NCBI GenBank assembly: GCA_005889475.1
Contig: VBGT01000026.1
Coordinates: 17,544 to 81,543, forward strand
Length of the DNA stretch: 64,000 bases
From: Chloroflexota bacterium
GTDB taxonomy: Bacteria > Chloroflexota > Limnocylindria > Limnocylindrales > CSP1-4
Direction of reading: 5' to 3'
The position numbers and the translations under genes were made by a program. Of this stretch, positions 2,343-56,031 are shown piece after piece. Under the pieces are notes generated by a model that ran no database searches, was not told where the DNA came from, and saw nothing but the letters and a program-made list of their open reading frames with translations. The stretch's first letter is position 1; every line of letters begins with the position of its first letter.

Positions 2343-2678
2343 CGCGAACCATATTCGATCGGCCGCCGCCGAACCCGGAGCGCGTCGAACGACCCACGCG
2401 GCTGATCGCCTCCTCGGGCAGCGAAGGTTGGGTGACCTCCGGGTTAGTCGGGATGATCCCGGGGTAGATCGTCCGAATTACTGCCGGCTTTCGTCCGCGC
2501 GACGATCGAACCATTGCTTGCGCCGCGGGCAACGACGTAGGGTTTCCAGACTCACTCGACGCGTGGACAGCGCCGGGCGCCGAGGGGGTTCCACGAACTA
2601 GCACACCCGTCGCGAGGCGGGGCCGCAAAGCCACGGGGCTCTCTGAGCCAGCCGGGTTGCCGAACGGAGCCACCATCG

Positions 2679-4355
2679 ATGTTCTGGGATGGAACGCGCT
2701 GGGTCGACCCGCGCGCGACTGAGCACGCCAGGGTCGAACGTCGGCGGTCCGCCGACTGGATCGCCACCGGCATCATCGGGGTGATGGTGCTGGCGATGGT
2801 CACCCCCTTTCACGATGCCTCCGCGGGTCGCGGACCTTCGTCCACGTTGGATCCCAACGCCACCAGCCTGATCTACGAGGAGTCGAACGCACAGCTCCAG
2901 TTCTCGGGGGCCTGGTACGGCGTCACGGACACCGCCTACAGCGGTGGGGCCGCCATGGCTTCGGATGCCGCCAAGGCCACGGTGACACTTCGCTTCACGG
3001 GAACCGGCGTCGCATGGACCGGCTCCGCCGGACCGAACCAGGGCAGAGCGCGGGTGTACCTCAACGGCAAGCTCGTGAAGAACGTGGACACGCAGGCAAC
3101 GACCTTCAGCCCAACGCGCGTCCTGTATTCGGTGTCCTTCAAGTCGGAACAGACGAAGACGCTCATCATCGAGATCGCCGGCACACGAGGCCGTCCAACC
3201 GTCGTCGTCGACACGATCGTGGTACGCAAGCCGGACCCGACCCCGAACCCGCCGGCCGACGTCACGCCGACCGCCGCGCCGACCGCGGACCCGGCGACGC
3301 CTGCGCCGCAGCCGACCTTGGATCCGACCGCTCCGCCTCCGCCCCCGCCGACGCAGCCGCCGGCGACGCCCGCACCGACGAGCTCGACCGGGGTCAACGT
3401 GCCTTCCTCGATCGACGCCACCGGGGGAAGCGACGCCTCCGTGGCGCTCGCAGCGTTCATTGCTTCCGTGCCCAACGGGAAGACCATCAACTTCAAGGCA
3501 GGCGGGGTGTATCGGCTCGATGCCGGCCTGCGCATCCTCGACCGCAGCGGTCTTACCTTCGAGGGCAACGGGGCGACGTTGCGAGCGACGGCGACGACGG
3601 GTCGCCCACGGACGTCGCCGTTCCTGGTCGAGAACAGCAGCTCGATCACGATCCGGGACTTCACCCTGAAGGGGAACAATCCGGACGCCGGCACATCGGC
3701 GAGCCTTCACCTCGATCGCCAGGACCAGGGCGGAGTCATCGTCTACAGCGGCAGCGACATCCTCATCGAGCAGACGACCATCAGCGGGACCTGGGGCGAC
3801 TGCGTGTACCTGGGCAACAATGGGATGAGCGGCTCCCCGTGGACCGACGGGGTGGTCTATCGCGACTCCGTCTGCAAGCTCAACGGCCGGATGGGTGTCG
3901 CGCTCGTCGCCGCGCGCCACGTGACCGTCGCCCGTGTCAGCTTCGACAAGATCGCGATGTTCCCGTTCGACATCGAGCCGGACACGAGCGCCGGAGGCGC
4001 AACCTACGTCACGATCCGCGATAACACGGTGGCGACGTACGGCCTGTCGCCGCTGTTCACCGAGCACTTCTTCGCCGCCTCGGGCGCGGCTGGCTCCACC
4101 GTCCACAACATCACGGTCACCGGCAACCGGGTCACCGATCCCAAGGGGTTGCGGGTCACGGTCGGCACCGCCGTCCGCCAGAACATCTTCATCACGAACA
4201 ATGTCGGCACGGCCACATTGGCCGGCCCCTTCATGCACTTCATGAACGTCGATGGCGTCACCGTGACCGGCAACCAGGAGGTCGTGTCGGCTGGGCAGCT
4301 CGCCGAGTTCATCGGCTGCACGGGTGTCACCTACTCCGGCAACGTGACCAACTGA
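2679..4355 (+). CDS. membrane-anchored or secreted protein: N-terminal WDGxxW motif plus TM, sugar-binding-like beta-sandwich, Pro/Thr linker, right-handed parallel beta-helix domain
   Basis: The protein starts MFWDGTRWV, followed by the TM segment WIATGIIGVMVLAMV. A PT-rich linker (PDPTPNPPADVTPTAAPTADPATPAPQPTLDPTAPPPPPPTQPPATPAPT) follows. The C-terminal half has periodic beta-helix repeats (ITIRDFTLKGNN, ILIEQTTISG, VTIRDNTV, ITVTGNRV, IFITNNV, VTVTGNQ). Confidence 0.7.
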   Translation: MFWDGTRWVDPRATEHARVERRRSADWIATGIIGVMVLAMVTPFHDASAGRGPSSTLDPNATSLIYEESNAQLQFSGAWYGVTDTAYSGGAAMASDAAKATVTLRFTGTGVAWTGSAGPNQGRARVYLNGKLVKNVDTQATTFSPTRVLYSVSFKSEQTKTLIIEIAGTRGRPTVVVDTIVVRKPDPTPNPPADVTPTAAPTADPATPAPQPTLDPTAPPPPPPTQPPATPAPTSSTGVNVPSSIDATGGSDASVALAAFIASVPNGKTINFKAGGVYRLDAGLRILDRSGLTFEGNGATLRATATTGRPRTSPFLVENSSSITIRDFTLKGNNPDAGTSASLHLDRQDQGGVIVYSGSDILIEQTTISGTWGDCVYLGNNGMSGSPWTDGVVYRDSVCKLNGRMGVALVAARHVTVARVSFDKIAMFPFDIEPDTSAGGATYVTIRDNTVATYGLSPLFTEHFFAASGAAGSTVHNITVTGNRVTDPKGLRVTVGTAVRQNIFITNNVGTATLAGPFMHFMNVDGVTVTGNQEVVSAGQLAEFIGCTGVTYSGNVTN

Positions 4356-30977: not shown

Positions 30978-32318
30978 CTAGGTCGAGGCGAGCACGGCCT
31001 CGGTGACCTGCTCGATCGCCGCAGTCAGTCGATCGGCGATGGCGACGAGCTCGTCGTCGGTGACCACGAATGGCGGCCCGAGCACGATTGCGTCGCCGTT
31101 CGTCCCGTCGGCGAGACCTGTCCCCGAGTAGAGCAGCACCCCCGCCTCGCGACCCGCCTGCAACACGCGCTCCGCGACCCGCTCCGAGCGCGGAAACGGC
31201 GCTCGCGTCTCGCGATCTGCCACGAGCTCAACCCCGAGCAGCAGGCCCCGGCCGCGGATCTCGCCGACGTTCGGATGCCCGCCGAGGCCGGCCTCGAGCA
31301 AACCCTTGAGCCGTTCGCCCTTCGCGGCACTCGCCTCGACCAGGGCTTCCTCCTCGAGGATTCGCAGCACCTCGCCAGCCACCGCCGAGCCGACGACGTG
31401 GTGCGAGTAGGTGAAGCCGTGGACGAACCCGCCGCCATCGAGCACCGTGTCACGGATCGCCCCTGCTGCCGCGACGAGCCCGAACGGGAAGTAGCCGGAG
31501 GTCGCACCCTTCGCCCCGACCAGGATGTCCGGGCGGATCACCCAATGGTCCATCCCGAACCAGCGGCCGGTGCGCCCGAAGCCGGTCATGACCTCGTCGG
31601 CGATGAGCAGCACGCCGTGCCGGCGACACACCTCGGCGATCGCCGGCCAGTAGCCGTCGGGCGGCTCGGCGGCGGCGAGCGTCGCGCCCACGATCGGCTC
31701 GGCCACGAAGGCAGCGACGGTGCCGGGACCAGCGGCCTCGATCGCGCGATCCAGCTCGTCCGCCAGCTCGACGGAATCGCCGAGCGCGTTGGCGCCGGGC
31801 TCCCCGGCGCGATACGGGTACGCGGCCGAGACGTGCCGGAACCGCCCGAGCCATGCCTCGTACGGCCGGCGCAGCGGCTTGCGACCCGACAGGTCCAGCG
31901 CGCCCAGCGTGTTGCCGTGGTAGCTCCCCCAGCGAGCGATGACGATCCAGCGCTCAGGGTCGCCACGTGCGACGTGGTAGGCGCGGGCCAGCTTGAGCGC
32001 CGATTCCATCGCCTCGGAGCCGCCTGCGACCGGGTAGATCGCCGGGTCCTCGAGGAGGAGGTGCGGCGCGAGCGCCGCCGCGTATCGCTCCAGCGGCTCG
32101 CTCGTGAACGCCGTCCCGTGGGCATACGCGATGCGTCCGGCCTGGTCGGCCATCGCCTGGGCCACGGTCGCCCGCCCGTGCCCGATCCCAACCACGACCG
32201 CGCCCCCGGCGGCGTCGAGATACGCCCGCCCGTCGGCGTCCCAGATCGTCGTGCCCTCGGCGCGGACGGCCACGGGCAGCGCGGGATCCGTCGAGCGGCG
32301 GAAGACGTGGCTGGCCAC
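30978..32318 (-). CDS. class III (omega-type) PLP aminotransferase
   Basis: Motifs GGSEAMESALKLAR, DEVMTGFGRTG and AKGATSGY. Confidence 0.85.
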   Translation of the reverse strand: MASHVFRRSTDPALPVAVRAEGTTIWDADGRAYLDAAGGAVVVGIGHGRATVAQAMADQAGRIAYAHGTAFTSEPLERYAAALAPHLLLEDPAIYPVAGGSEAMESALKLARAYHVARGDPERWIVIARWGSYHGNTLGALDLSGRKPLRRPYEAWLGRFRHVSAAYPYRAGEPGANALGDSVELADELDRAIEAAGPGTVAAFVAEPIVGATLAAAEPPDGYWPAIAEVCRRHGVLLIADEVMTGFGRTGRWFGMDHWVIRPDILVGAKGATSGYFPFGLVAAAGAIRDTVLDGGGFVHGFTYSHHVVGSAVAGEVLRILEEEALVEASAAKGERLKGLLEAGLGGHPNVGEIRGRGLLLGVELVADRETRAPFPRSERVAERVLQAGREAGVLLYSGTGLADGTNGDAIVLGPPFVVTDDELVAIADRLTAAIEQVTEAVLAST

Positions 32319-32805: not shown

Positions 32806-33588
32806 TCAGCCCGTGTAGGCGCCCCCGGCGTCGAGCTCCTCGCGGATCAGTCGCAGCTCGTCGGCGGTCGGTGCCGGTGTCTCCTGGATCGCCTCCGCCA
32901 GGCCCGGCTCCCAGCCGGTCGCCCCGCGCACGTCCTCGAGCGTCACGCCCGGGTGCAGCGAGTCGAGACGCATCTCGCCGCCTTCGTCGAAGTGCCAGAT
33001 GCCGAGGTCGGTCACGACGAGCGACGGCCCTCGACCGAGCCAGCCCTGCTCCCGCCGGATGCGTTCGGCATCCTCCGCGCCGCCGAGGTTGCCCGCCGAG
33101 GTCCGGAAGTCGATGCGCTCGACGAACGAGCGCGTCGACTGGCGCATGATCACGAACACCTGGCGGGCGTTGATCGCGATCTCGCACGCGCCGCCACTGC
33201 CCGGCAGCCGCGTGGCCGGGGCGTCGTAGTCCCCGATCACCGTGGTGTTGATGTTCCCGAACCGGTCGATCTGCGCCGCGCCGAGGAAGCCGACGTCGAT
33301 GAGCCCGCCCTGCAGGTAGAAGCTGAACAGCTCGTACATGCTCACGACCGACGTCGCGCCGGTCACGATGGTCGGGTCGCCGATGCTCAGCGGCAGGCGC
33401 GCCGGCCGCGCGCCGAAGACGCCCGCCTCGTAGACCAGCTCGAGCTCGGGCGCGACCGTCCGTTTCGCCAGGTTGACCGCGATGTTCGGCAGCCCGACCC
33501 CGACGAAGCAGACGTGCTGGCCGGCCAGCTCGCGCGCCGCGGCCACGATCATCATCTCGGACTTGGAGAAGGCGGCGGCCCCGCTCAT
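32806..33588 (-). CDS. CoA-transferase subunit B (glutaconate / 3-oxoacid CoA-transferase family)
   Basis: The ATG at 33588 overlaps the subunit A stop (ATGA). Motifs are GVGLPN, AAQIDRFGNIN and GSGGA. Confidence 0.85.
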   Translation of the reverse strand: MSGAAAFSKSEMMIVAAARELAGQHVCFVGVGLPNIAVNLAKRTVAPELELVYEAGVFGARPARLPLSIGDPTIVTGATSVVSMYELFSFYLQGGLIDVGFLGAAQIDRFGNINTTVIGDYDAPATRLPGSGGACEIAINARQVFVIMRQSTRSFVERIDFRTSAGNLGGAEDAERIRREQGWLGRGPSLVVTDLGIWHFDEGGEMRLDSLHPGVTLEDVRGATGWEPGLAEAIQETPAPTADELRLIREELDAGGAYTG

Positions 33589-34532
33589 TCGTAGCGTCCG
33601 TAGTCGACCGAGCCGGACGGCGCCGTCCCGGGCCGCAGCGACGTGACCCGCTCGACACCGAGCTTGTCCACGTAGGCGGCGCGGCCGTCGAGGTCGTAGA
33701 CCCACTCCCGCAGCCAGCGCTGGAGCGCGTTCTCGTCCTTCGTGATCCCGTCCCACTCGAGGTAGAAGCGGTTGTCGCGGTCGTACGCACCCTGCACGTA
33801 CGACGGGTGCGCCCCGAACGGCTCGACCACCACCGCGTCGACGATCAGGCCCGGAACGATCGTCCGGTTCGGGTCGGCCCGCACGACTGCTTCGTCGACG
33901 AGCTCCTCGACGACGACGATCACGCGATCCGCGGCGAAGGCGGCCTCCTTCTGGCAGCCGAGCAGGCCCCACACCTGGGTGTTGCCCGCCGCGTCGGCGC
34001 GCTGGGCGTGCACGATCGTGACGTCGGGCTTGAGTGGCGGCACCGCGTAGACGACCCCGTCGCCGTACGGCGAGGCGACCTCCCGGATCAACGGATTTGC
34101 CTTGGGCAGGTCGGTCTCGAAGTAGCTCCGGAGCGGATAGAACGGCAGGTTCGCGGCGCCGGCGGTGTACCGCCCGACCATCCCGAAGTGGCTGTACTCC
34201 TCGAGCTCGAGCCGCGGGAGCAGACCATCCCGCCCGCCGGGGGCGCTCGTCGCCGTCTCCGTCCGCCGCCGGATCGCGCCGAGGCCGCCCACGCCCGGAT
34301 TCCCGAGCCACGAGAAGATCAGCTTGCGAGCGACCCCGGCCGCGATCATCTGGTCATAGATCAGGTCGGGCGTGAGCCGGGCGAGGGTCAGGTCGCGCCG
34401 GCCCTGGCGGATGATCTCGTGACCCGCGGCGAAACCGATCAGGTGGGTGAAGCCCTCGATCGCCACGGAGTCGCCGTCGCGGACGAGCGTCGCGATGGCA
34501 TCGTGCATCGACGCGACCTTGCTGCTGCTCAC
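33585..34532 (-). CDS. CoA-transferase subunit A
   Basis: 315 aa with the typical subunit A layout (DGDSVAIEGF ... VTIVHAQRADAAGN). It is coupled to subunit B. Confidence 0.85.
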   Translation of the reverse strand: MSSSKVASMHDAIATLVRDGDSVAIEGFTHLIGFAAGHEIIRQGRRDLTLARLTPDLIYDQMIAAGVARKLIFSWLGNPGVGGLGAIRRRTETATSAPGGRDGLLPRLELEEYSHFGMVGRYTAGAANLPFYPLRSYFETDLPKANPLIREVASPYGDGVVYAVPPLKPDVTIVHAQRADAAGNTQVWGLLGCQKEAAFAADRVIVVVEELVDEAVVRADPNRTIVPGLIVDAVVVEPFGAHPSYVQGAYDRDNRFYLEWDGITKDENALQRWLREWVYDLDGRAAYVDKLGVERVTSLRPGTAPSGSVDYGRYE

Positions 34533-34728
34533 CCGCGCAGTATCGCCAATGGGCAGGGCACGCTGTCCGGCTTGGCCGGGTGTTGCCTTCCGGCAACGTT
34601 AGTACTGCAGCCGCAACGTGAGGGTCGAGATTGCAATGGGCGCTGCATTCGGTCCGCCCTGCCCCGTGTCTAGAGTTCCACACGACCGGGTCAACCTGCC
34701 CATGGCTGCCCTCGATCAGGAACGAAGC

Positions 34729-38589
<3,861 letters not shown>

Positions 38590-38625
38590 CCCGGCGCTTT
38601 TGGCCGCAGTCGCCAGGTCGCCCGC

Positions 38626-39621
38626 TCAGCCGAAGAGCTCCGCGCCCGCCTTCTGCAGCGCAGCCGTGCCGCGCACGTCGGAGTCGTAGAGCTGCACGAT
38701 GGCCCGGACCTGACCCGGAAAGCGCTCGCGAATCTCGTCCAGGTAGCCATGCTGCATGTCAACGCGGTTGCGCACGAACTCGCCGCCGGTCTTGGCATCG
38801 GCTGCCGAAATTACCTCGTTGATGATGACCCCGCCCACCGGGATGCCGAAGTCGGTGAACCAGTCGATGAACCGGCTGATGACGGCGATCGGGAGAGCCT
38901 CGGGCAGCGTGACGAAGAAGAACGCCGTCTTCTCGGGATCGGTCAGCAGCTCACGCGCGTGGGCGATCCGGCCCCGGAAGTCGACGAGGTATTGCATCAG
39001 TGGGTCCTCTTCCTTCTTCTTGGTGAAGGACAGGGCCTCCCGTAGCGACTGCGCCTCCTCGCGCGACTTGAGCATCTTCTCGACCCACAGGCCGTAGACC
39101 TTGGACATCCCGAGCAGTCGCCGGGCGTTGGCCGTCGGGGCGGTGTCGAAGACATAGACCTCGTACTCGTCCTTGAACATGAGGTCGACCATGTTCTCGA
39201 ACATGGCCGACTCCTCGAAGGCGGGGTTCATCGTCGCCGCCTCGACGAACTCGTCGGCCTTGGTCGAGATCTCCGCGAACTTCAGGAACCATTGAATCTT
39301 CTCGCGGATTTCGCGCTTCGAGCGCTCGATCGCCTCGCGGGTGTCGATCTCGAAGGCCGTGAGGTTGTCGACGTCGGCGATCCTCGTGGGCTTGCCGAAG
39401 CAGTCCGTGCCGAGGCAGCTCGTGAGGCTGTGCACCGGGTTCGTCGAGGCCAGGAGCGTGCGCCTGCCGGACTTCGCGAGCTGATGAGCAGTCGCCGCGG
39501 CCATGACGGTCTTACCGACGCCGCCCTTGCCGCCGAAGAAGACGTAGCGCAGGCCGGGATGCTCGGCGAGGTAGCCGGCCATCGACGTAGAGATCAGGGG
39601 CTCGGCGGAAGCGGTCGTCAT
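38626..39621 (-). CDS. ArsA/Get3-family P-loop ATPase (paralogue B)
   Basis: The deviant Walker A is FGGKGGVGKT. Other motifs are STNPVHSL and DTAPTANARRLL. The ATG overlaps the stop of the upstream paralogue (ATGA at 39618-39621). Confidence 0.85.
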   Translation of the reverse strand: MTTASAEPLISTSMAGYLAEHPGLRYVFFGGKGGVGKTVMAAATAHQLAKSGRRTLLASTNPVHSLTSCLGTDCFGKPTRIADVDNLTAFEIDTREAIERSKREIREKIQWFLKFAEISTKADEFVEAATMNPAFEESAMFENMVDLMFKDEYEVYVFDTAPTANARRLLGMSKVYGLWVEKMLKSREEAQSLREALSFTKKKEEDPLMQYLVDFRGRIAHARELLTDPEKTAFFFVTLPEALPIAVISRFIDWFTDFGIPVGGVIINEVISAADAKTGGEFVRNRVDMQHGYLDEIRERFPGQVRAIVQLYDSDVRGTAALQKAGAELFG

Positions 39622-40649
39622 CTCGCCTCTCCCTTCGCGCCGGCGAGGGATGCGTCGCCGTACAGCAGCCGCGCGACGCGCTCGATCATGGGCAGGCCGG
39701 TGACGTCGCGCTCGAGCTCGGGGACGTGGGCGAGCACCTGGTCGCCGAATGTCCGATGGATCTCGGCGAGCTGGCCCTGCTGCATCTCGAATCGGTTGCG
39801 CAGGAAGCCGGGTGCGCCGTCGGAGAGGAGCTCCTCGCGGATGAGTCGGTTGAGGACGTAGCCGCCGATGGGCACGTCAAACTTCGAGAAAAGCTCAGCG
39901 GCCTTCTTCGTGTCCACAAGGATCATCTGCTCAGGCACCACGACGAAGAAGAACGCCGTTCGCTGTCGGTCCGTCAGGATTCGCGAGGCGCTGTTGATCC
40001 GCCCGCGGATGTACTGCAGCTCGCCGAGGATCTGATCCTCGTCGACCTCCTTCTGGCGCTTCATCCGCGCCGCAACCTCCTCGTACTCGCGCATCTCCTC
40101 GCGTAGTCGGGTGATCCTGGCGATCCACTCGTCGTAGACCTTCGCCATGGACAGGTAGTACAGGGCGTGGCCGAGCGGCACGAGGTCGTAGATGTAGAAG
40201 TCGTAGTCGCCCTGGTTCACGATGTCGACAACCGAATCGAAGATCGCCGACTCCTCCATCGCCGGCTCCGCCGATGCCGCCTGGATGTAGTCCTCGATCT
40301 CCTGGGGGACCTCGTCCAGGCCGTACATGTCCAGGATCTTCTGGCGGATCTCCTGCTGGTATTCCCGAATGTGCCGGTCGGCATCGATCTCCTGGGCCCA
40401 CAGGTTGTCGAGGATCTTGACCGGGCCCTTGCCGAAGATGTCCTGCTGGAAGATGTCGGAGAGGCTCGCCTGCGGATCGACCGAGAACACGAGCACCCGC
40501 TTGCCCTGCTCGGCCAGCCAGAACGCGGTTGCGGCCGAGAAGGTGGTCTTCCCCAGGCCACCCTTGCCGCCGAACATCACGTATCGGCGTTCCGGGTGGG
40601 CGCGGAACGCCTCCGCCAGCTCGGTCGAGGCGACCGTCGCTGTGGTCAT
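39618..40649 (-). CDS. ArsA/Get3-family P-loop ATPase (paralogue A)
   Basis: Motifs FGGKGGLGKT, SVDPQASLSD and YDLVPLGHALYYL. It starts 3 nt after the stop of the upstream small gene. Confidence 0.85.
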   Translation of the reverse strand: MTTATVASTELAEAFRAHPERRYVMFGGKGGLGKTTFSAATAFWLAEQGKRVLVFSVDPQASLSDIFQQDIFGKGPVKILDNLWAQEIDADRHIREYQQEIRQKILDMYGLDEVPQEIEDYIQAASAEPAMEESAIFDSVVDIVNQGDYDFYIYDLVPLGHALYYLSMAKVYDEWIARITRLREEMREYEEVAARMKRQKEVDEDQILGELQYIRGRINSASRILTDRQRTAFFFVVVPEQMILVDTKKAAELFSKFDVPIGGYVLNRLIREELLSDGAPGFLRNRFEMQQGQLAEIHRTFGDQVLAHVPELERDVTGLPMIERVARLLYGDASLAGAKGEAR

Positions 40650-40652
40650 CGG

Positions 40653-40949
40653 CTAGAACATCGCATCCGTGAGGTCCTTCTCACGGAGCATCCGCCGCTT
40701 CCATGTCGCGATCTGGGGGACGGCGTACGGGAGGAGCCGGAGCGAGTAGTAGGGCGGCAGGATCGGGACGCCGAGCATGTCGCCCATCGTCGTCAGGATG
40801 AACAGGTGCTCCATGCTCGCCCGCGTTCGCATGGCGTACCGCGTCATGTCATGGGCGGCCATCCCATAGGTGACTTCGCGCAATCGACCGAGGATGCCCC
40901 GGACGCCATCCTGGCCCTCTGGCTTGTCGCTTTGCGGCTTCTCTGGCAT
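40653..40949 (-). CDS. 98-aa conserved hydrophobic protein, unknown family (paralogue 2)
   Basis: A strong SD (GGAAGGAGGAG) lies 6 nt upstream of the ATG. GC3 is high. About half of its residues are identical to the upstream paralogue, including GDM, PPYY-LRLLP and IATWKRR-LRE. Confidence 0.75.
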   Translation of the reverse strand: MPEKPQSDKPEGQDGVRGILGRLREVTYGMAAHDMTRYAMRTRASMEHLFILTTMGDMLGVPILPPYYSLRLLPYAVPQIATWKRRMLREKDLTDAMF

Positions 40950-40980
40950 CAGCTCCTCCTTCCGCCCGCCGGCGGTCGGA

Positions 40981-41298
40981 TCACACGCCGTGCAGGTGGT
41001 ACTCGTGCTGGTCGCTGAACTCGCGCTCGCGCAGCACCCGCCGTTTCCAGGTGGCGATCTCGGGCGTCACGAACGGCAGGAGCCGAAGCGCGTAGTAGGG
41101 CGGGATCACCGGAAGGCCGATCATGTCGCCGACGACAACGACCATGAACAGATTCTCGAGCGCGGCGCGTGTCTCGAGGGCGTGGCGGGCGAACTCGTAG
41201 CCGGTCATCCCGTAGGCGAACTCGCGGAGCGCCGCGCGCAATCCGCGGGGGCGTACGGCCGATCGCGGGCCGGTGGCTGGCTCGGTCATCCAGTCCAT
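40981..41298 (-). CDS. ~102-105-aa conserved hydrophobic protein, unknown family (paralogue 1)
   Basis: The start is ATG at 41298 or 41289. The sequence reads LREFAYGM...LFMVVVVGDMIGLPVIPPYYALRLLPFVTPEIATWKRRVLRE. The longer ORF (to 41847) is a Ser/Arg-rich shadow of the divergent gene. Confidence 0.7.
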   Translation of the reverse strand: MDWMTEPATGPRSAVRPRGLRAALREFAYGMTGYEFARHALETRAALENLFMVVVVGDMIGLPVIPPYYALRLLPFVTPEIATWKRRVLREREFSDQHEYHLHGV

Positions 41299-41401
41299 CC
41301 ATGCGGGCTCTCGAGGACCTCGCGACTCTAGCAGAAGCCGGCGACGACCCCTCTGAACGACTCCGCGATCCACGACGTTGGCCGTCCAGTAGAGTCCGGC
41401 C

Positions 41402-42061
41402 ATGCCCGATGCCTCCGCGATCGTGACCTTCCTCGCGATCGCATTGCTGCTCATGATCATGCTCTCGTTCGCCTTCGGTACCCAGTGGAACATCCGCAAG
41501 GGCAATGCGCGCCTGCGGTGGCTGCAGCCGGCGCTCCCGGTGTTGGGCGAGCGAACGACACTCCGCTGGCTCGGCAGCTCGGTGGTCCAGCTGGACCTCG
41601 TCGAGCCGCGGGACCCGTTCCGGGAGGTCACGGTCATGGTCGTCCTCGAGCCGCGGGACGTGCCACTGCTGTGGCTGTTCGCCCGTGCCGGGGGCCGCCG
41701 CGACATGCTGATCCTCCGGGCCAGCCTCCGGCGTGCCCCTCGGCTGGAGGTAGAGGCCGTGGCAGCCGGCGCTTGGATCAAGGCAAGCGACGACGAGGAG
41801 GTGGCCACGTGGCCGGCGATTTCCTTCCCGAACGACATCCGCGCCACGGCGGTGCCGGGCTCCGATCCGGCGAGTGTCGCGGCGGTACGGCGTGCCTGGG
41901 AGCGACTGGCGACCGCATCCGGCGGCGTCTGGCGGCTGTCGATCCGGCGGACCGTGCCCCATCTCGAGGTTCACCTGAGACCGTCGAGCGACCCGGGCGC
42001 CCCGCCAATGAAGGTCGTGGACACGATCAGGGATCTCGCTGTCGAGCTGTCGAGGGCTTGA
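41402..42061 (+). CDS. N-terminally anchored membrane protein, function unknown
   Basis: ATG at 41402, with the TM segment IVTFLAIALLLMIMLSFAF. GC3 is high. It is divergent from the small-protein/ATPase operon across a 103-nt spacer. Confidence 0.65.
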   Translation: MPDASAIVTFLAIALLLMIMLSFAFGTQWNIRKGNARLRWLQPALPVLGERTTLRWLGSSVVQLDLVEPRDPFREVTVMVVLEPRDVPLLWLFARAGGRRDMLILRASLRRAPRLEVEAVAAGAWIKASDDEEVATWPAISFPNDIRATAVPGSDPASVAAVRRAWERLATASGGVWRLSIRRTVPHLEVHLRPSSDPGAPPMKVVDTIRDLAVELSRA

Positions 42062-42121
42062 ACAGATGACGGTGCGGGCTCATGCGGAGCCCGCACCCAC
42101 CTCTGAACGGCGACAGCCGGT

Positions 42122-44017
42122 TCAGCCCGAGGCTGGCGCGGCCGCCGGCGTCGGTTCGGCGCGGAGGCGGTTCCAAGCGATCCAGGCGTCGTACGCGATC
42201 AGCAGCGCGGCCACGAAGAGCAGCACCGAGACGGCGATCATCGCCCAGGCCCCGGCGATCGAGATCACGGCCTGGCCCGGCTGCGTCGCGATCGTCGCGT
42301 ACAGGTTGTAGGCCGTGACGATCGTGGCGGCCATGGTCGTCACGTACATGAACACCATCGGGATGCCGGCGAACGCCGGGTTCCTCCCGACCGACCGCAG
42401 CCACACCGTGACGAGCAGCAGGCTGAGGGCGGCCAGGAGCTGGTTCGAGGCCCCGAACAGCTGCCACAGGTAGACCCACGTCCCCGACAGGACGAGGGCC
42501 ATGGTGATGACCATCCCGACGATCGATGCGACGTGCTGGTTCTTGAAGCCGACCCAGCGATCGCCGAGCCACTCGCCGAGGGTGACGCGCATCACGCGGA
42601 ACACGAGCTGCACGACGGTCAGGACGATCACGACGAACGCCCCGAACCCGAGCGCGGTTCCGAGGGGCAGCGGGATCGTCTGGAAGGACGCGACATGGAT
42701 GAGCCGACCGACGCCGGCCGCGAAAGCACCGGCTCCGGCACCCGTGCCGACGATCGCGACGGCGGTGAGCGACAGGAGTCCGAGCGTGTTCTCCGAGAAC
42801 ATCCCGCCTCCACCGACGGGGAGCGCGTCGGTCTCGTACTCCAGCTGACGGGCCGTGCCGATCGAGCCGAACAGCGCATGCCAGCCCGAGATGGCACCGC
42901 AGGCGATCGTCACGAACAGCATGGGCCACAGCGGCTGTATGCCGACCGCGGTCGCGCCCATGAAGCCCTTGGCGTCCTGCAATGCGAAGGCGCCGGCCGG
43001 CGCCGTCGCGTTGGGCAGCGTGACGAATGGCGCGATGAGCGCCCCGATCGCGCTCACCCCGATGACGATGGCGGTGATCCAGAAGCCGATGTAGTTCACG
43101 GGTTGCGCAAACCGCCAGATCGCCATGTTCGCACCGAGGTAGCTGAACACCAGGAGCGCGATCGACCAGAACAGGAAGTTCGGGAGGACCTTGATCTCGT
43201 TCGTCGCGGCGACGTACGTCGCCGTGTCGCTGCGCTTGCCATCGACCGGTGCCGGGATCCGCGGGTCGGCGAACGTCGGGTCGGTGACCCGGTAGATCTC
43301 GCCGCCTGAATTGATCGACGCGTTGATCGAGTTGACGATCCCGCTGATCGGCCCGGTCGACCAGTCGGTCGGCTTGCCCGGCGTGAACGTCGCCCCGAGC
43401 GGACCGAGCGCCATCGCGCCGAGCGTGAGGGCCACGGTCAGGAGAGAGACGCCGACGATGCTCATCCGCAGCCGGTAGATGGCGTACCCCGCGAACAGCC
43501 CGGCGAGCGCGAGGACGAGGATGCCGAACGGCACGTCGGGGCGGGCGGCCAGGATGCCGGCCATGATCCCGACGAAAGCGCCGGCGATCAGGAGCAGGTA
43601 GAAGAAGATGAACACGAACAGGATGCGCCGGGTCCGCGGCGAGATCAGCCGGTGGGCGATCGCGCTCAGCGAGTTCCCGTCGTTGCGGACGGCCATCATG
43701 ATCGCGCTGTAGTCGCTCGCCCAGCCGATAAAGCTGACGCCGATCATCAGCCACAGGACCGACGGAAGCCAGCCCCACAGGTTCGCGGCGGTGATGACGC
43801 CGACGATCGGCCCTGCGGCGGCGATCGACTTGAAGTGGTAGCCGTACAGGACGAACCGGCTCGTGGGCATGAAGTCGGCCCCGTCCATGTACATCCGCGC
43901 CGGCGTGGCGCGATTGGGATCGGCCTGGATGACGGTCCTGTCGATCCGCTTCGCGTAGAAGGTGTAGGCGAGGTAGATGACGACCACGCCGATGACGACG
44001 ATCCAGAGTGAGCTCAT
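42122..44017 (-). CDS. cstA: carbon starvation protein A (peptide/pyruvate transporter family)
   Basis: 631 aa. The N-terminus is typical of CstA (YGYHFKSIAAAGPIVGVITAANLWGWLPSVLWLMIGVSFIGWASDY). The SD GGGAGG lies 5 nt upstream. Confidence 0.9.
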   Translation of the reverse strand: MSSLWIVVIGVVVIYLAYTFYAKRIDRTVIQADPNRATPARMYMDGADFMPTSRFVLYGYHFKSIAAAGPIVGVITAANLWGWLPSVLWLMIGVSFIGWASDYSAIMMAVRNDGNSLSAIAHRLISPRTRRILFVFIFFYLLLIAGAFVGIMAGILAARPDVPFGILVLALAGLFAGYAIYRLRMSIVGVSLLTVALTLGAMALGPLGATFTPGKPTDWSTGPISGIVNSINASINSGGEIYRVTDPTFADPRIPAPVDGKRSDTATYVAATNEIKVLPNFLFWSIALLVFSYLGANMAIWRFAQPVNYIGFWITAIVIGVSAIGALIAPFVTLPNATAPAGAFALQDAKGFMGATAVGIQPLWPMLFVTIACGAISGWHALFGSIGTARQLEYETDALPVGGGGMFSENTLGLLSLTAVAIVGTGAGAGAFAAGVGRLIHVASFQTIPLPLGTALGFGAFVVIVLTVVQLVFRVMRVTLGEWLGDRWVGFKNQHVASIVGMVITMALVLSGTWVYLWQLFGASNQLLAALSLLLVTVWLRSVGRNPAFAGIPMVFMYVTTMAATIVTAYNLYATIATQPGQAVISIAGAWAMIAVSVLLFVAALLIAYDAWIAWNRLRAEPTPAAAPASG

Positions 44018-44032
44018 CCGAACCTCCCTAGC

Positions 44033-44416
44033 TCACGCCCCGACCTGGGCCGCGCGGGACAGCGCACGGGCAATCTGGGGCTCCGCTGCTGCGTAGTCGT
44101 TGCCGATGACGACAGGCTCGCCGTCGACGATGACGGCCGGATGCCGCCAGGCGCGATGACGCAGGGACGCGAGGAAACCTTCGATCGACGCCGCGTCGAT
44201 CACCTCCACGTGGATCCGCGGGCCATGGCGGTTGACGATCGCCCGGACCCAGTCCGAGAGCCGAGCGAAGTCGAGGGCGAGGTCCTTGGGCAGGGCGCTC
44301 GCGGCTTCCTCGCGGCGGATCCGCTCGCCGAGGCCCACTTCGCCGAACGCCAGCTCGCAGTGCTGGCAGTGCGTGAACACGGTCGGGGCGTACGTGATGA
44401 CCTTGACGGTCACCAC
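44033..44416 (-). CDS. small thioredoxin-fold-like CxxC protein (YuzD-like layout), co-transcribed with cstA
   Basis: A GTG-GTG start at 44416/44413 is preceded by AGAGG. The sequence is VKVITYAPTVFTHCQHCE ... HPAVIVDGEPVVIGN. It ends 15 nt upstream of cstA. Confidence 0.55.
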   Translation of the reverse strand: MVTVKVITYAPTVFTHCQHCELAFGEVGLGERIRREEAASALPKDLALDFARLSDWVRAIVNRHGPRIHVEVIDAASIEGFLASLRHRAWRHPAVIVDGEPVVIGNDYAAAEPQIARALSRAAQVGA

Positions 44417-44619
44417 GTCGGAACCTCTGTCTCGCCTGGCTGGACGACGGAGCAATCGCACGGCACCACCAACCCGGCCCGCGTGAGCCTGGCGGGATCA
44501 TGGGCGAGATGGCGTACCGTCGGGCGACGATTGCGCTCGCGGTGGACCTTTCGGTTTCCTCACAGATTGGCCGCCGAACGACGCCTGCGCCTTGCACGCG
44601 AAGCATCACGGACCGGCGG

Positions 44620-44639
44620 GCCGACCCTTTCGGGGCAGC
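44620..44639 (-). terminator. GNRA-capped hairpin just downstream of gabT (candidate intrinsic terminator without a U-tract)
   Basis: On the minus strand the sequence is GCUGCCCC-GAAA-GGGUCGGC, 10 nt after the gabT stop. Confidence 0.3.
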
Positions 44640-44649
44640 GCTTGATTTC

Positions 44650-46032
44650 CTAGCCGGCGACCTCGCCGTCGTGCAGCGCGCCCGCCGCGGCGGCCTGGCG
44701 GGCGATCTCGGACGGATGGGTCGCGACGGCCTCGACGGCCTCGCCGAAGATCCGAACGGCGGTCTCGACGTCCGATTCGGAGGCGATGAGGGGCGGGCAC
44801 AGGCGCACGGTCTGCCGACCGCACTCGAGGACGAGCAGGCCGCGGACGAAGCACGCCCACTGGACCTCCTCGGCGAGCTTCGGATCGGCGAACTCGACGC
44901 CGATCATCAGGCCCTTGCCGCGGACGTCGAGGATCGTGTCGGGGGAGCGGCGCGCCAGCTCGCGCAGCCCGGCCAGCAGCTGCTCGCCGCGGGCGGCGGC
45001 ATTGTCGACGAGGCCGCCCTCGAGCAGCTCGATCGTGGCCAGCGCCGCGGCGCACGCGACCGGATTGCCGCCGTATGTCGAGCCATGGGCGCCCACGCCC
45101 CACGACTCCATGAGCTCCGCGCGCGCCACCATCGCGCCGAGCGGCATGCCGCTGGCGATCCCCTTCGCGACGAGGAGGATGTCCGGCTCGACGCCCCAGT
45201 GCTCGACCGCCCACATCTTCCCGGTCCGGCCCGCGCCCGACTGGATCTCGTCGGCGACGAGCAGGATTCCGTGCCGCGTGCACAGCTCGCGGAGCCCTTC
45301 GAGGAACCCGTCATCCGGGACGATGTAGCCGCCCTCGCCCTGGATCGGCTCGACGACGATCGCCGCGACCTCGTCGGCCGAGACCAGGTGCTTGAACAGC
45401 ACGTCGTCGAACCAGCGCAGGTGCTCCACCTTGCCGAACGGCGCGTGATGGATGCCGGGCAGGAGCGGGCCGAAGCCGGCGTGGTACTTCGCCTTCGAGG
45501 CGGTGAGGCTCAACGAGCCGTAGGTTCGGCCGTGGAAGCCGCCGAGGAACCCGACGATGTACGGCCGACCGGTGGCGTACCGGGCGAGCTTCATCGCCGC
45601 CTCGACGACCTCGGTGCCGGAGTTGCCCAGGTAGGTGCGGAGCTTGCCGCGCATCGGCGCGATCCGGGCGAGCTCGCGCGCCGTCTCGGCATAGATCGGG
45701 AGGTAGAAGTCGGAGGCCGAGTAATGGATCAGCTCGGAGGCCTGCTCCTTGATCGCGCCGATGACGCGCGGGTGGGCGTGGCCGGTGGAGTTGACCGCGA
45801 TTCCCGCGGCGAAGTCGAGGAACAGGTTGCCGTCGATGTCCTCGATGGCCATGCCCCGGCCGCGGACGGGCACGATGGGATATGCGCGCGGCAGGCTCGG
45901 CGACGTCCACTCCTCGTCGAAGGTGACGTGGGCTCGCGCCTTCGGCCCGGGGATCTCGGTGACCAGGTCCGGCAGCGGTCGCTCGCTCATCGGGCGGGAG
46001 GCGCGATCGATGGACGAGACGCTCTGGGCCAC
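44650..46032 (-). CDS. gabT: 4-aminobutyrate / omega-amino acid aminotransferase (class III)
   Basis: The GTG at 46032 is preceded by GAGGTG. Motifs are EIPGPKA, ADEIQSGAGRTG, AKGIASG and STYGGNP. Confidence 0.85.
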   Translation of the reverse strand: MAQSVSSIDRASRPMSERPLPDLVTEIPGPKARAHVTFDEEWTSPSLPRAYPIVPVRGRGMAIEDIDGNLFLDFAAGIAVNSTGHAHPRVIGAIKEQASELIHYSASDFYLPIYAETARELARIAPMRGKLRTYLGNSGTEVVEAAMKLARYATGRPYIVGFLGGFHGRTYGSLSLTASKAKYHAGFGPLLPGIHHAPFGKVEHLRWFDDVLFKHLVSADEVAAIVVEPIQGEGGYIVPDDGFLEGLRELCTRHGILLVADEIQSGAGRTGKMWAVEHWGVEPDILLVAKGIASGMPLGAMVARAELMESWGVGAHGSTYGGNPVACAAALATIELLEGGLVDNAAARGEQLLAGLRELARRSPDTILDVRGKGLMIGVEFADPKLAEEVQWACFVRGLLVLECGRQTVRLCPPLIASESDVETAVRIFGEAVEAVATHPSEIARQAAAAGALHDGEVAG

Positions 46033-47565: not shown

Positions 47566-49149
47566 TCAGTCGACGACCGTGTGGCTCTGCTCCCGCATGA
47601 ACTGGGCGACGTAGTACATCGACAGGCCGGCCTTGCCGGTCGAGCCGGAGCCCTTCCACCCGCCGAACGACTGGACGCCCGGCCACGCCCCCGTCGTCGC
47701 GCCGGCCCGGCGGTTCACGTACAACACGCCCGCTTCGATCTCGTCGAGGAACTGCTCGACCTCGCCCGGGTCCTCGCTGTATACGCCCGCGGTGAGGCCG
47801 TAGATCGTGCCGTTGGCAAGCTTGAGCGCCTCGTCCAGTGACTCGACCGCCTGGATCGCGGTGAACGGCGCGAACAGCTCGTCCTGGAAGAGCCGATGCG
47901 AGGGGTCGAGACCGCCGACCACCGTCGGCTCGACGTAGTAGCCGCGCGACAGCGCACCGTCCGACAGGTGCTCGCCGCCGGTGTAGACCACCCCGTCGCG
48001 GCGCGCCTCGAACACTGCCTGCTGGTGCCGGTCGAGCGCCTTCTGGTCGATGATCGGCCCCAGCCAGTTCTCGCGCGGGATCGGGTCGCCGATCGTGATC
48101 TTCTCGGCCTTCTCGACGAGCATTCGGACCAGTTCGTCATGGACCGGCTTCTCGACGTACACGCGTGAGTTCGCGGAGCATTTCTGGCCGCCGAACCCGA
48201 ACGCGGAGCGCATGATCCCCTCGGCCGCCTCCTCGAGGTCGGCCTTGCGCGAGACGATCGCCGGGTTCTTGCCGCCCATCTCGACGATGCACGGCCGCGG
48301 CCACGTGGTCGAGAACGACTTGAAGAGCTTGAACCCGACCTCGTACGAGCCGGTGAAGACGATGCCGTCGATGCCCGGGTTCGTCCGGAGCTCGTCGCCG
48401 ACCGTGTCGCCGGGGCCCATGACCAGGTTGACCGTGCCCGGCGGCATCCCGGCGTCCTCGAGGGCGTGGATCAGGTTGACCCCCGACAGCGGCGATGCCG
48501 AGGCGGGCTTGAAGACGACCGTGTTGCCGGCCAGGAGCGCCGCGCTCACCGGACCGGCCGCGAGCGCCATCGGGAAGTTGAACGGGCTGATGACCCCGAA
48601 GACGCCGAGGGGCCGGAGGATCGACCGCGTGTGGACGGCGTCGTCGCCGAGGTTGTCCATGGCGTGGTCGTAGCCGTTGTTGGCCTCGAGCGTCTGGCCG
48701 TAGTAGCGCAGCAGATCGGCCGCCTCCTCGACCTCGCCGAGCGCCTCGAGCCGGTTCTTGCCGACCTCGAACGCCATGTCCGCGCCGTAGCGCATCTGGC
48801 GTTCCGAGATCAGCTCCGCGGCGCGGCGGATGATCGCGAGGCGGTCCTGCCACGGCGTATGCCGCCACTCCGGCGCGGCGCGGCGCGCGGCCGTGATCGC
48901 CGACTGCACGTCGTTCCGGTCGCCCTTCGCGAACGTCCCGATCAGCATCTCGCGATCGATCGGCGAGCGCGCCTCGAACACGCCCGCGGAGCCGTCGACC
49001 CAGCGCCCACCGACATAGTTCCGGTGGTGTGCGCCGAGCCCGGAGCGTGCCTCCTGCACGCCCTGCTCGTACAACGCGTGGAGCTCCTCGTTGTCGTTGC
49101 GCAGGGTCGCGTAGGTGATCTTGATGCGCGGGCGGGCTTCGGTGGTCAT
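47566..49149 (-). CDS. aldehyde dehydrogenase, L-glutamate gamma-semialdehyde (P5C) dehydrogenase-like
   Basis: 527 aa. Motifs are VEMGGKNP and the catalytic-Cys motif FGFGGQKCSA. The N-terminus is PruA-like. Confidence 0.8.
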   Translation of the reverse strand: MTTEARPRIKITYATLRNDNEELHALYEQGVQEARSGLGAHHRNYVGGRWVDGSAGVFEARSPIDREMLIGTFAKGDRNDVQSAITAARRAAPEWRHTPWQDRLAIIRRAAELISERQMRYGADMAFEVGKNRLEALGEVEEAADLLRYYGQTLEANNGYDHAMDNLGDDAVHTRSILRPLGVFGVISPFNFPMALAAGPVSAALLAGNTVVFKPASASPLSGVNLIHALEDAGMPPGTVNLVMGPGDTVGDELRTNPGIDGIVFTGSYEVGFKLFKSFSTTWPRPCIVEMGGKNPAIVSRKADLEEAAEGIMRSAFGFGGQKCSANSRVYVEKPVHDELVRMLVEKAEKITIGDPIPRENWLGPIIDQKALDRHQQAVFEARRDGVVYTGGEHLSDGALSRGYYVEPTVVGGLDPSHRLFQDELFAPFTAIQAVESLDEALKLANGTIYGLTAGVYSEDPGEVEQFLDEIEAGVLYVNRRAGATTGAWPGVQSFGGWKGSGSTGKAGLSMYYVAQFMREQSHTVVD

Positions 49150-55955: not shown

Positions 55956-56031
55956 TGGAGCGGGCGGCGGGATTCGAACCCGCGGCATCCTGCTTGGAGG
56001 GCAGGCACTCTTCCAGCTGAGTTACGCCCGC
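55956..56031 (-). tRNA. tRNA-Gly (anticodon UCC), CCA encoded
   Basis: The minus strand reads GCGGGCG-TA-ACTC-AGCTGGAA-GAGT-G-CCTGC-CCTCCAA-GCAGG-ATGCC-GCGGG-TTCGAAT-CCCGC-CGCCCGC-T-CCA. This folds as a full 76-nt cloverleaf. Confidence 0.93.

Follow-up and report, generated by a model that had tools for sequence, protein, structure and literature searches.

Gene content of the locus

The analysis of a 64,000-nucleotide (nt) stretch of contig VBGT01000026.1 from a Chloroflexota bacterium (GenBank assembly GCA_005889475.1, positions 17,544 to 81,543 of the forward strand), referred to below as the window, reveals a minus-strand operon at 38626-41298 in which two small proteins of the DUF7990 family, the putative CstX, precede two paired ATPases of the ArsA/Get3 class. 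In the direction of transcription, the genes encode DUF7990/CstX paralogue A (sA; 40981..41298, 105 amino acids [aa]), paralogue B (sB; 40653..40949, 98 aa), ATPase A (AtpA; 39618..40649, 343 aa), and ATPase B (AtpB; 38626..39621, 331 aa). The intergenic spacing is 31 nt between sA and sB and 3 nt between sB and AtpA, and the start of AtpB overlaps the stop of AtpA by 4 nt (ATGA), a translational coupling that fits a 1:1 complex. A Shine-Dalgarno sequence, AAGGAGG (40955..40961, minus strand), was read from the sequence 5 nt before the ATG of sB. A preliminary description of this DNA, made from the letters alone, had listed the same four genes, the same spacing, and the same strong Shine-Dalgarno sequence, all of which were borne out. 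Its treatment of the four genes as one unit holds as far as their spacing is concerned but not as a self-contained module, as they belong to a bigger conserved cluster that includes a CstA-family permease.

The permease gene (42122..44017, minus strand; 631 aa; PF02554 CstA, E 6e-97) lies ~0.8 kb upstream of the four-gene operon on the same strand. It is preceded by the gene of a probable thioredoxin-fold protein with the motif HCQHCE (p142; 44033..44461, minus strand, 142 aa), and the interval between the permease gene and the operon is occupied by a divergent gene (41402..42061, plus strand) for a 219-aa protein with one N-terminal transmembrane (TM) helix. The conserved block therefore reads 142-aa protein, CstA, divergent 219-aa protein, sA, sB, AtpA, and AtpB. 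The preliminary description had missed both the CstA permease and the thioredoxin-fold protein, as well as the published cstA-cstX-arsA clusters (PMC2963123), and the co-occurrence of these two proteins with the four genes makes transporter coupling, instead of protein targeting, the likeliest function.

The convergent 3' ends of the CstA and 219-aa genes are separated by a GC-rich hairpin, an inverted repeat with 19-nt arms (42063..42105), whose RNA fold reaches -30.9 kcal/mol (z = -5.3 against shuffles). It carries no U-tract, which explains why a consensus terminator scan missed it. We consider it a probable bidirectional terminator, and given its position between the two convergent ends, the cluster is probably transcribed as at least two units. 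Consensus scans of 38300-44800 for sigma-70 promoters and intrinsic terminators found none, the 103-bp divergent promoter region (41299-41401) contained no inverted repeats, and an Rfam scan of the whole window returned nothing in or near the cluster.

The start of sA is ambiguous, as the GenBank product has 102 aa and begins at the second in-frame Met (alternative start 41289). The longest open reading frame (ORF) at this position (40981-41847, minus strand, 288 aa), which has a high GC content at third codon positions and crosses the opposite-strand 219-aa gene, is, judging from conservation, a high-GC artefact, because what is conserved is an sA of 102-105 aa together with the plus-strand 219-aa gene.

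Conservation of the cluster across genomes

A scan for the small protein with one genome per species gave at least 596 confirmed matches. The best 80 loci were examined by tblastn with the seven window proteins, and the counts below refer to those of the 80 that have enough flanking sequence. These loci come from Chloroflexota (with Limnocylindria closest), Actinomycetota, Acidobacteriota, Gemmatimonadota, and Anaeromyxobacteraceae, and further from Binatia, Stellaceae, Thermoanaerobaculia, and Symbiobacterium. The ATPase pair lies directly downstream of sB in 72/72 loci, and sA is upstream of sB in 74/79. CstA is found directly upstream of the small genes in 57 of 63 loci and anywhere in the locus in 72 of 80, while the 142-aa gene stands upstream of CstA in 32/59. 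Adjacency of small genes and ATPases in relatives, which the preliminary description had named as a check, is thus kept throughout, and its suggestion that the divergent membrane-protein gene at 41402-42061 belongs to the same unit is supported by the presence of that gene in 67/77 loci. Outside the block, neighbouring genes vary from locus to locus. Overall, the module is very widespread and extremely conserved, and it defines a set of candidate partners for the ATPases: CstA, two putative adaptors, a thioredoxin-fold protein, and a single-pass protein.

More distant variants retain parts of the same arrangement. At locus L086, where the small protein is 44% identical, CstA, two DUF7990 genes, and two ATPase genes follow each other in the same order, and L088 and L089 consist of CstA, DUF7990, and an ATPase. 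A p142-family gene lies beside cstA in L088 (1182-1571), and at L085 (136-722) a 142-aa-like gene overlaps DUF7990 by 4 nt.

Reciprocal motif changes in the two ATPases

A single PF02374 ArsA_ATPase domain spans the whole of each ATPase (E 4e-72 for AtpA and 3e-67 for AtpB), and both proteins pass the TIGR00345 GET3_arsA_TRC40 model (230 and 222 bits; cut-off 135). They are 38% identical to each other over 338 aa, and each is 65-91% identical to its counterparts across phyla. The nearest solved structures of both are archaeal Get3 proteins, namely 3UG6 from M. jannaschii (E 1.7e-65 for AtpA and 2.8e-52 for AtpB) and 3ZQ6 from Methanothermobacter (E 2e-60 and 1.1e-51), followed by E. coli ArsA (1F48; E 1.4e-33 and 1.9e-35), yeast Get3 (2WOJ; E 1.1e-18 and 5.8e-21), and M. 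tuberculosis BagAB (6BS3; E 1.9e-8 and 2.5e-6 for AtpA). The AtpB search was limited to E 1e-15, so 6BS3 is not listed for AtpB.

The window ATPases align end to end with archaeal Get3 (M. jannaschii 3UG6/3UG7 and Methanothermobacter 3ZQ6), and like these they have a SIMIBI fold in a single domain, a deviant Walker A, and switches I and II. Archaeal Get3, however, has a CxxC motif (CDFC/CEFC), the signatures STDPAHS and DTAPTGH, and an insert rich in Met and Phe, whereas the window ATPases lack the CxxC and carry a charged insert. The positions aligned to CDFC of M. jannaschii Get3 (MjGet3) read PGFL in AtpA and GEFV in AtpB, and the insert region is 4 (AtpA) or 7 (AtpB) residues shorter than in MjGet3, with Glu, Arg, and Lys in place of Met and Phe. 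AtpB contains two cysteines (positions 69 and 74), and AtpA contains none.

The two paralogues differ from each other in a strictly kept manner. AtpA carries GGKGGLGKT, SVDPQAS, and YDLVPLGH, and AtpB carries GGKGGVGKT, STNPVHS, and FDTAPTAN; the deviant Walker A and the reciprocal changes in the signature motifs, as already noted in the preliminary description, were confirmed and turned out to be invariant in all orthologues read. SVDPQAS and YDLVPLGH are identical in 75/75 AtpA orthologues, STNPVHS and FDTAPTAN in 73/73 AtpB orthologues, and the ATPase pair of the distant locus L086 shows the same AtpA/AtpB split. In the alignment, the Asn of AtpB takes the place of the Asp in switch I of MjGet3 (STDPAHS), and the Gly-His of switch II is replaced by Ala-Asn. 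In Get3, the D57N substitution impairs hydrolysis and not nucleotide binding, and D-to-N mutants of Get3/TRC40 bind their clients constitutively (PMC6633398). By this alignment, AtpA is predicted to be the catalytically competent subunit and AtpB a degenerate subunit, the natural equivalent of Get3 D57N.

In 72/72 loci the two genes stand side by side, and the reciprocal changes in their motifs do not vary. AtpA and AtpB are therefore very likely the two halves of an obligate, asymmetric heterodimer in which one site is live and the other degenerate, in support of the heterodimer that had been proposed earlier. The invariant split between a catalytic and an Asn-substituted ATPase leads to a sharp and testable mechanistic prediction. 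The lone ATPase of L088 carries STDPQAS and resembles AtpA, which suggests that AtpA represents the ancestral type of subunit.

The DUF7990 small proteins

The two small proteins are paralogues, as had been recognised from the sequence, with 42/79 residues identical (53%, E 7e-36) rather than the 42 of 81 originally counted. From the sequence alone they could not be assigned to a named family, and a scan of both against a local copy of Pfam returned no match, presumably because this copy lacks the PF25952 model; their homologues are nevertheless labelled Pfam PF25952 (DUF7990). This precomputed label stands on all 120 listed homologues, which are 64-99% identical, and on the neighbouring paralogues in loci L001-L003. 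The NCBIfam model NF041419 ("cory-CC-star protein") is matched over most of its length by sA (32.5 bits) and sB (33.2 bits) at E 4e-8 to 7e-8, far under its cut-off of 80, which indicates distant relatedness only; neither small protein has the C-terminal Cys-Cys, or indeed any cysteine, and their C-termini read ...HLHGV and ...DAMF.

An exhaustive DUF7990 profile search retrieved 426 clusters at the 50%-identity level, and the conserved core of the family is GDxxGxPxxPPYYxLRLLPY...WKRRxLRE. Its best-conserved part is a hydrophobic stretch rich in Pro and Gly, with five Pro residues as well as a near-invariant Asp and Arg, and sB is 67-96% identical across phyla. Each paralogue has its own conserved tail, ...[FY][HD]LHG[VLI] in sA and ...EKD[VLI][ST]DA[MI]F in sB. 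One hydrophobic segment was found per small protein, with a maximum Kyte-Doolittle value over 19 residues (KD19) of 1.85 in sA and 1.22 in sB. The family median of 1.61 is borderline for a membrane helix, and 31-40 residues separate the segment from the C-terminus. In an AlphaFold 2 (AF2) model of sB, with a predicted local distance difference test (pLDDT) score of 68, a PPYY turn leads from a first helix (16-59) to a second, basic helix at the C-terminus (78-97).

A DUF7990 profile built from 52 sequences matched no PDB sequence at E up to 1, and a Foldseek search of the DUF7990 model (pLDDT 68) against the PDB found no significant match, the best being a flagellar export-apparatus chain at E 0.55. 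No match turned up when 72,556 plasmids were searched by tblastn with the small protein. In E. coli, ybdD (YbdD/YjiX, PF04328) directly follows cstA, so that small CstA-associated proteins recur, and DUF7990 and the E. coli YbdD showed no relation when their profiles were compared (hhalign probability 0.3%). Literature searches on cory-CC-star, DUF7990, CstX, and carbon starvation protein with ArsA names found only PMC2963123.

The preliminary description had proposed the small proteins as partners of the ATPases. Their adjacency is kept across phyla, and on this genomic ground a functional partnership with the ATPases is supported. In several Anaerolineales/Chloroflexota genomes (loci L038, L043, L051, L058, L066, L071, L073, and L075), a third DUF7990 copy, 59-64% identical to sB, follows the ATPase pair.

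The CstA permease and its putative accessory proteins

Over 431 aa, the window CstA shares 29% of its residues with E. coli CstA (E 1e-41), and a search of PDB sequences found no solved relative. Around residues ~205-285 it contains a hydrophilic insert of ~60-70 residues relative to E. coli CstA (PGKPTDWSTGPISG...NEIKVLPNF), which could serve as a docking loop, and much of the central and C-terminal region of E. coli CstA is missing from it. One cluster representative (P0162) reads as a fusion of a CstA C-terminus to DUF7990, possibly through a frameshift artefact.

The true start of p142 is probably near 44416, giving a protein of ~127 aa. No Pfam or NCBIfam model matches it, and its 449 homologues are all unnamed. 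The invariant columns of the family include H16, C17, Q18, H19, C20, and E21 (HCQHCE), and a near-invariant motif, RYPAV(I/V)VDG, resembles a cis-Pro motif. The AF2 model (pLDDT 83) finds only thioredoxin/protein disulfide isomerase (PDI) domains among its top 50 Foldseek PDB matches, which are weak (E 0.008-0.16, TM-scores 0.4-0.5, probability up to 0.99). These matches are all generic, so for p142 we claim no more than a probable fold class. An ArsD-like identity was considered and rejected, as no ArsD stands among those 50.

A p142-homologous domain is fused to the N-terminus of DUF7990 in P0226 (32% identity, E 6e-20), P0180, and P0132. Such fusions, the overlapping genes of L085, and the gene next to cstA in L088 occur in distant lineages, and the p142 family therefore looks like a core partner of DUF7990 rather than a passenger of this locus.

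The 219-aa protein has its top KD19 window (2.78) at residues 7-25. It matches no Pfam or NCBIfam model, and its 1115 homologues are all hypothetical; the copies in the 67/77 loci are 30-57% identical to it. No similarity was found between it and the divergent ~200-aa genes beside the distant loci L084 and L086.

Relation to previously described clusters and ATPases

A purely computational survey of 26 genomes by Castillo and Saier in 2010 described ~330-aa ArsA homologues encoded together with cstA and a ~90-aa single-TM-segment protein, cstX, joined in archaeal clusters by a ~210-aa single-TM-segment protein, cstY (PMC2963123). According to that survey, the CstA, CstX, and ArsA-homologue families co-evolve and every CstX is accompanied by a CstA; cst operons contain no arsR, and cst-linked clusters do not overlap with ars-linked ones (PMC2963123). 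Two adjacent ATPase paralogues ("Cluster 15") were reported for Symbiobacterium thermophilum and Pyrobaculum arsenaticum, some organisms were found to have two CstX paralogues, and the ATPase was proposed to energise CstA with CstX as a linker (PMC2963123).

The window has the corresponding components, that is, single-domain ArsA homologues of ~330 aa, CstA, CstX-like proteins of ~90 aa, and no ars genes, and the locus is of a kind that was predicted computationally in 2010 and is known from sequence analysis. Our locus L063 is that of S. thermophilum, where gene order and sizes fit the published example and the sole gene between cstA and the ATPase pair encodes a DUF7990 homologue. From this arrangement, and not from the CstX sequences of the paper, DUF7990 is taken to be the putative CstX of PMC2963123. 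The 219-aa single-TM protein resembles the ~210-aa CstY in size and TM content and may be its counterpart, although CstY was reported only in archaea. What the present analysis adds to PMC2963123 is the invariant Asp/Asn split of the ATPases, the paralogue-specific CstX tails, the thioredoxin-fold HCxHC partner with its fusions, the similarity of the ATPases to archaeal Get3 structures, and how widely the module is distributed.

Among characterised ATPases of the same superfamily, R773 ArsA (1F48) is a pseudo-heterodimer of two non-identical halves and sets the example of a soluble ATPase which, by docking on the secondary carrier ArsB, turns this carrier into an ATP-driven one. ArsA is, however, a fused two-domain protein with a Cys metalloid site encoded in ars operons, whereas two separate genes, CstA, and small proteins are found here. 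The BagA/BagB proteins (Rv3679/Rv3680) are likewise paired, adjacent, non-arsenic ArsA-like ATPases, and they form a heterodimer (6BS3). We know of no link of BagAB to CstA or DUF7990. Orthology to BagA/BagB was rejected, as NF053622 scores 49.7/48.7 bits against a cut-off of 400 and NF053621 scores 42.3/45.6 bits against 521. The comparison with Rv3679/Rv3680 in the preliminary description does not hold as orthology, given these 42-50 bits against 400-521 and an E of only ~1e-8 for 6BS3.

A model of ATP coupling to CstA and its alternatives

We favour a mechanism in which the AtpA/AtpB heterodimer docks on CstA via DUF7990 adaptors and couples ATP to transport or gating, and we give this proposal about an even chance of being correct. 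In the arrangement that we infer, AtpA and AtpB would associate physically as an asymmetric heterodimer of the Get3/ArsA (SIMIBI) class, to which AtpA would contribute the hydrolysis-competent site, while the site of AtpB would bind ATP and be impaired in hydrolysis. The DUF7990/CstX proteins would form hairpins of a helix, a Pro-rich hydrophobic turn, and a basic helix, and, as permanent subunits or adaptors, would hold the heterodimer on CstA. The binding and hydrolysis of ATP would then be coupled to gating of CstA or to transport of its presumed substrate, as ArsA turns ArsB into an ATP-driven pump, and the thioredoxin-fold HCxHC protein and the 219-aa single-pass protein would be accessory subunits. 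Characterised CstA proteins carry pyruvate or peptides.

The role of an adaptor rather than a client is suggested by the conserved hydrophobic core of DUF7990, its 67-96% identity, the distinct tails of the paralogues, and the fusions; the lack of the hallmark Get3 client features (CxxC and Met-rich insert) in the ATPases also speaks against a client. Coupling to CstA is suggested by the conserved linkage together with the co-clustering and co-evolution of CstA, CstX, and the ArsA homologues (PMC2963123).

Several observations weigh against this mechanism. The opposite-strand gene and the strong hairpin separate the CstA gene from the four-gene operon, so that the two are probably not on one transcript. 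Loci L022, L049, and L069 have no CstA nearby, and the DUF7990 gene of L084 (8001-8324) is an orphan with no CstA or ArsA-like gene within 8 kb, so that either its partners are encoded elsewhere or some DUF7990 members act independently. The nearest solved relatives of the ATPases are archaeal Get3 proteins (3ug6 and 3zq6), which bind tail-anchored proteins in vitro, so that chaperone activity is plausible; the borderline-hydrophobic segment near the C-terminus of DUF7990 is compatible with a tail-anchor-like or hairpin client, and the DUF7990 model reaches a pLDDT of only 68. Finally, the CstA and BtsT proteins that have been characterised are proton symporters and need no ATPase.

The first alternative, which we regard as rather unlikely, is GET-like targeting, in which the heterodimer captures the nascent DUF7990 hairpin or tail in the cytosol and delivers it to the membrane as a subunit of the CstA complex, so that the ATPase would serve targeting alone and would not stay with the transporter. 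The TIGR00345 scores, the closeness of archaeal Get3 structures, and the single moderately hydrophobic DUF7990 segment 31-40 residues from the C-terminus all agree with such a role, and yeast monotopic hairpin proteins are documented GET clients (PMC9123286). The natural D-to-N subunit could, moreover, serve as a built-in holding site, given that D-to-N mutants hold clients (PMC6633398). Yet the CxxC is absent and the insert of the ATPases is short and charged, not Met-rich. A generic anchor that faces the lipid would not resemble the hydrophobic stretch of DUF7990, which is conserved and includes an Asp, an Arg, and five Pro; together with the insert, this stretch argues against a generic client-to-groove relationship. 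The conserved block includes no gene for a Get1/Get2- or YidC-like receptor, and a dedicated two-subunit ATPase for two ~100-aa clients would be uneconomical, which is an argument and not evidence.

Alternatively, although we think this distinctly unlikely, the ATPases and the HCxHC protein could constitute a redox- or nucleotide-regulated holdase or switch for the assembly, stability, or activity of CstA, acting, for instance, in starvation or oxidative stress, without energising transport. This would accommodate the invariant HCxHC of a thioredoxin-fold protein that is encoded in the cluster and fused to DUF7990 in some genomes, as well as the degeneration of one ATPase site. Degenerate sites are common in regulatory rather than motor NTPase dimers, and SIMIBI ATPases with very small partners act on membrane machines, as in BcsQ-BcsR. 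An ATP-independent holdase activity of Get3 is described in PMC6593721 and PMC3613179. With no cysteine in AtpA and two only in AtpB, however, the ATPases themselves cannot house the redox switch of Get3. The gene for the thioredoxin-fold protein is present in 32/59 loci and absent in all Acidobacteriota loci read, and the fact that one catalytic site is strictly kept in fully canonical form suggests that turnover of ATP is important.

That the proteins are the ATPase of an arsenite/antimonite pump, as the PF02374 ArsA_ATPase match and the GenBank name of AtpA ("arsenic transporter") and JGI name of relatives ("arsenite-transporting ATPase") would imply, is extremely improbable, since they are single-domain proteins that score 104/108 bits against a cut-off of 650 for the ArsA equivalog TIGR04291 and 139/141 bits against 800 for NF041417, no three-Cys metalloid site is possible because AtpA lacks cysteine, families of the arsR, arsB, acr3, arsC, and arsD type were not found in the flanking genes (~10 kb) or in the neighbourhoods of relatives, and cst-linked and ars-linked clusters do not overlap (PMC2963123). 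The non-arsenic reading of the preliminary description is upheld on these grounds.

The coupling of ATP to CstA would have consequences beyond this locus. We entertain, tentatively and with some doubt, the broader idea that a large cross-phylum clade of prokaryotic "Get3" ATPases is the motor or gate of a new ATP-coupled transporter class, not a tail-anchor targeting system; in it, a heterodimer with one live and one naturally dead site would sit on a CstA-family permease through two DUF7990/CstX hairpins, with help from the thioredoxin-fold HCxHC protein. If true, CstA would be the second secondary-carrier family, after ArsB, to be made primary active by this ATPase class, and a physiological role would be available for bacterial and archaeal Get3 homologues, for whose non-arsenic members the in vivo role is an old open question.

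Annotation and genomic surroundings

The operon proteins are deposited in GenBank as TME12479-TME12482, on a contig from a soil metagenome-assembled genome of Chloroflexi, not of an actinobacterium. In public annotation, the ATPases appear as "arsenic transporter," "ArsA family ATPase," and "arsenite-transporting ATPase," and CstA as "hypothetical protein" (TME12479.1, TME12524.1). The arsenic annotation of the ATPases is almost certainly wrong, and such misannotation, which is probably systematic, inflates arsenic-resistance counts in soil metagenomes.

Genes for aminotransferases, CoA-transferases, an aldehyde dehydrogenase, a short-chain dehydrogenase/reductase, a GGDEF protein, and a histidine kinase with HAMP domains surround the cluster. 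Those at 30978-32318, 32806-34532, 44650-46032, and 47566-49149, on either side, encode two aminotransferases of class III, an aldehyde dehydrogenase, and a CoA-transferase of two subunits. These flanking metabolic genes are not conserved beside the cluster in relatives and therefore probably do not hint at the substrate. A 1323-aa sensor histidine kinase (34618-38589, plus strand), composed of many tandem HAMP/HAMP_2 domains followed by GAF, PAS, HisKA, and HATPase_c, is convergent with the ATPase operon and is likewise not kept beside the cluster in relatives. Elsewhere in the window, a single tRNA gene was detected at 55959-56031 on the minus strand (RF00005, 66.7 bits), and a c-di-GMP-I riboswitch aptamer (2590-2664, plus strand; RF01051, 57.9 bits, E 1e-8) lies directly 5' of a 558-aa ORF (2679-4355).

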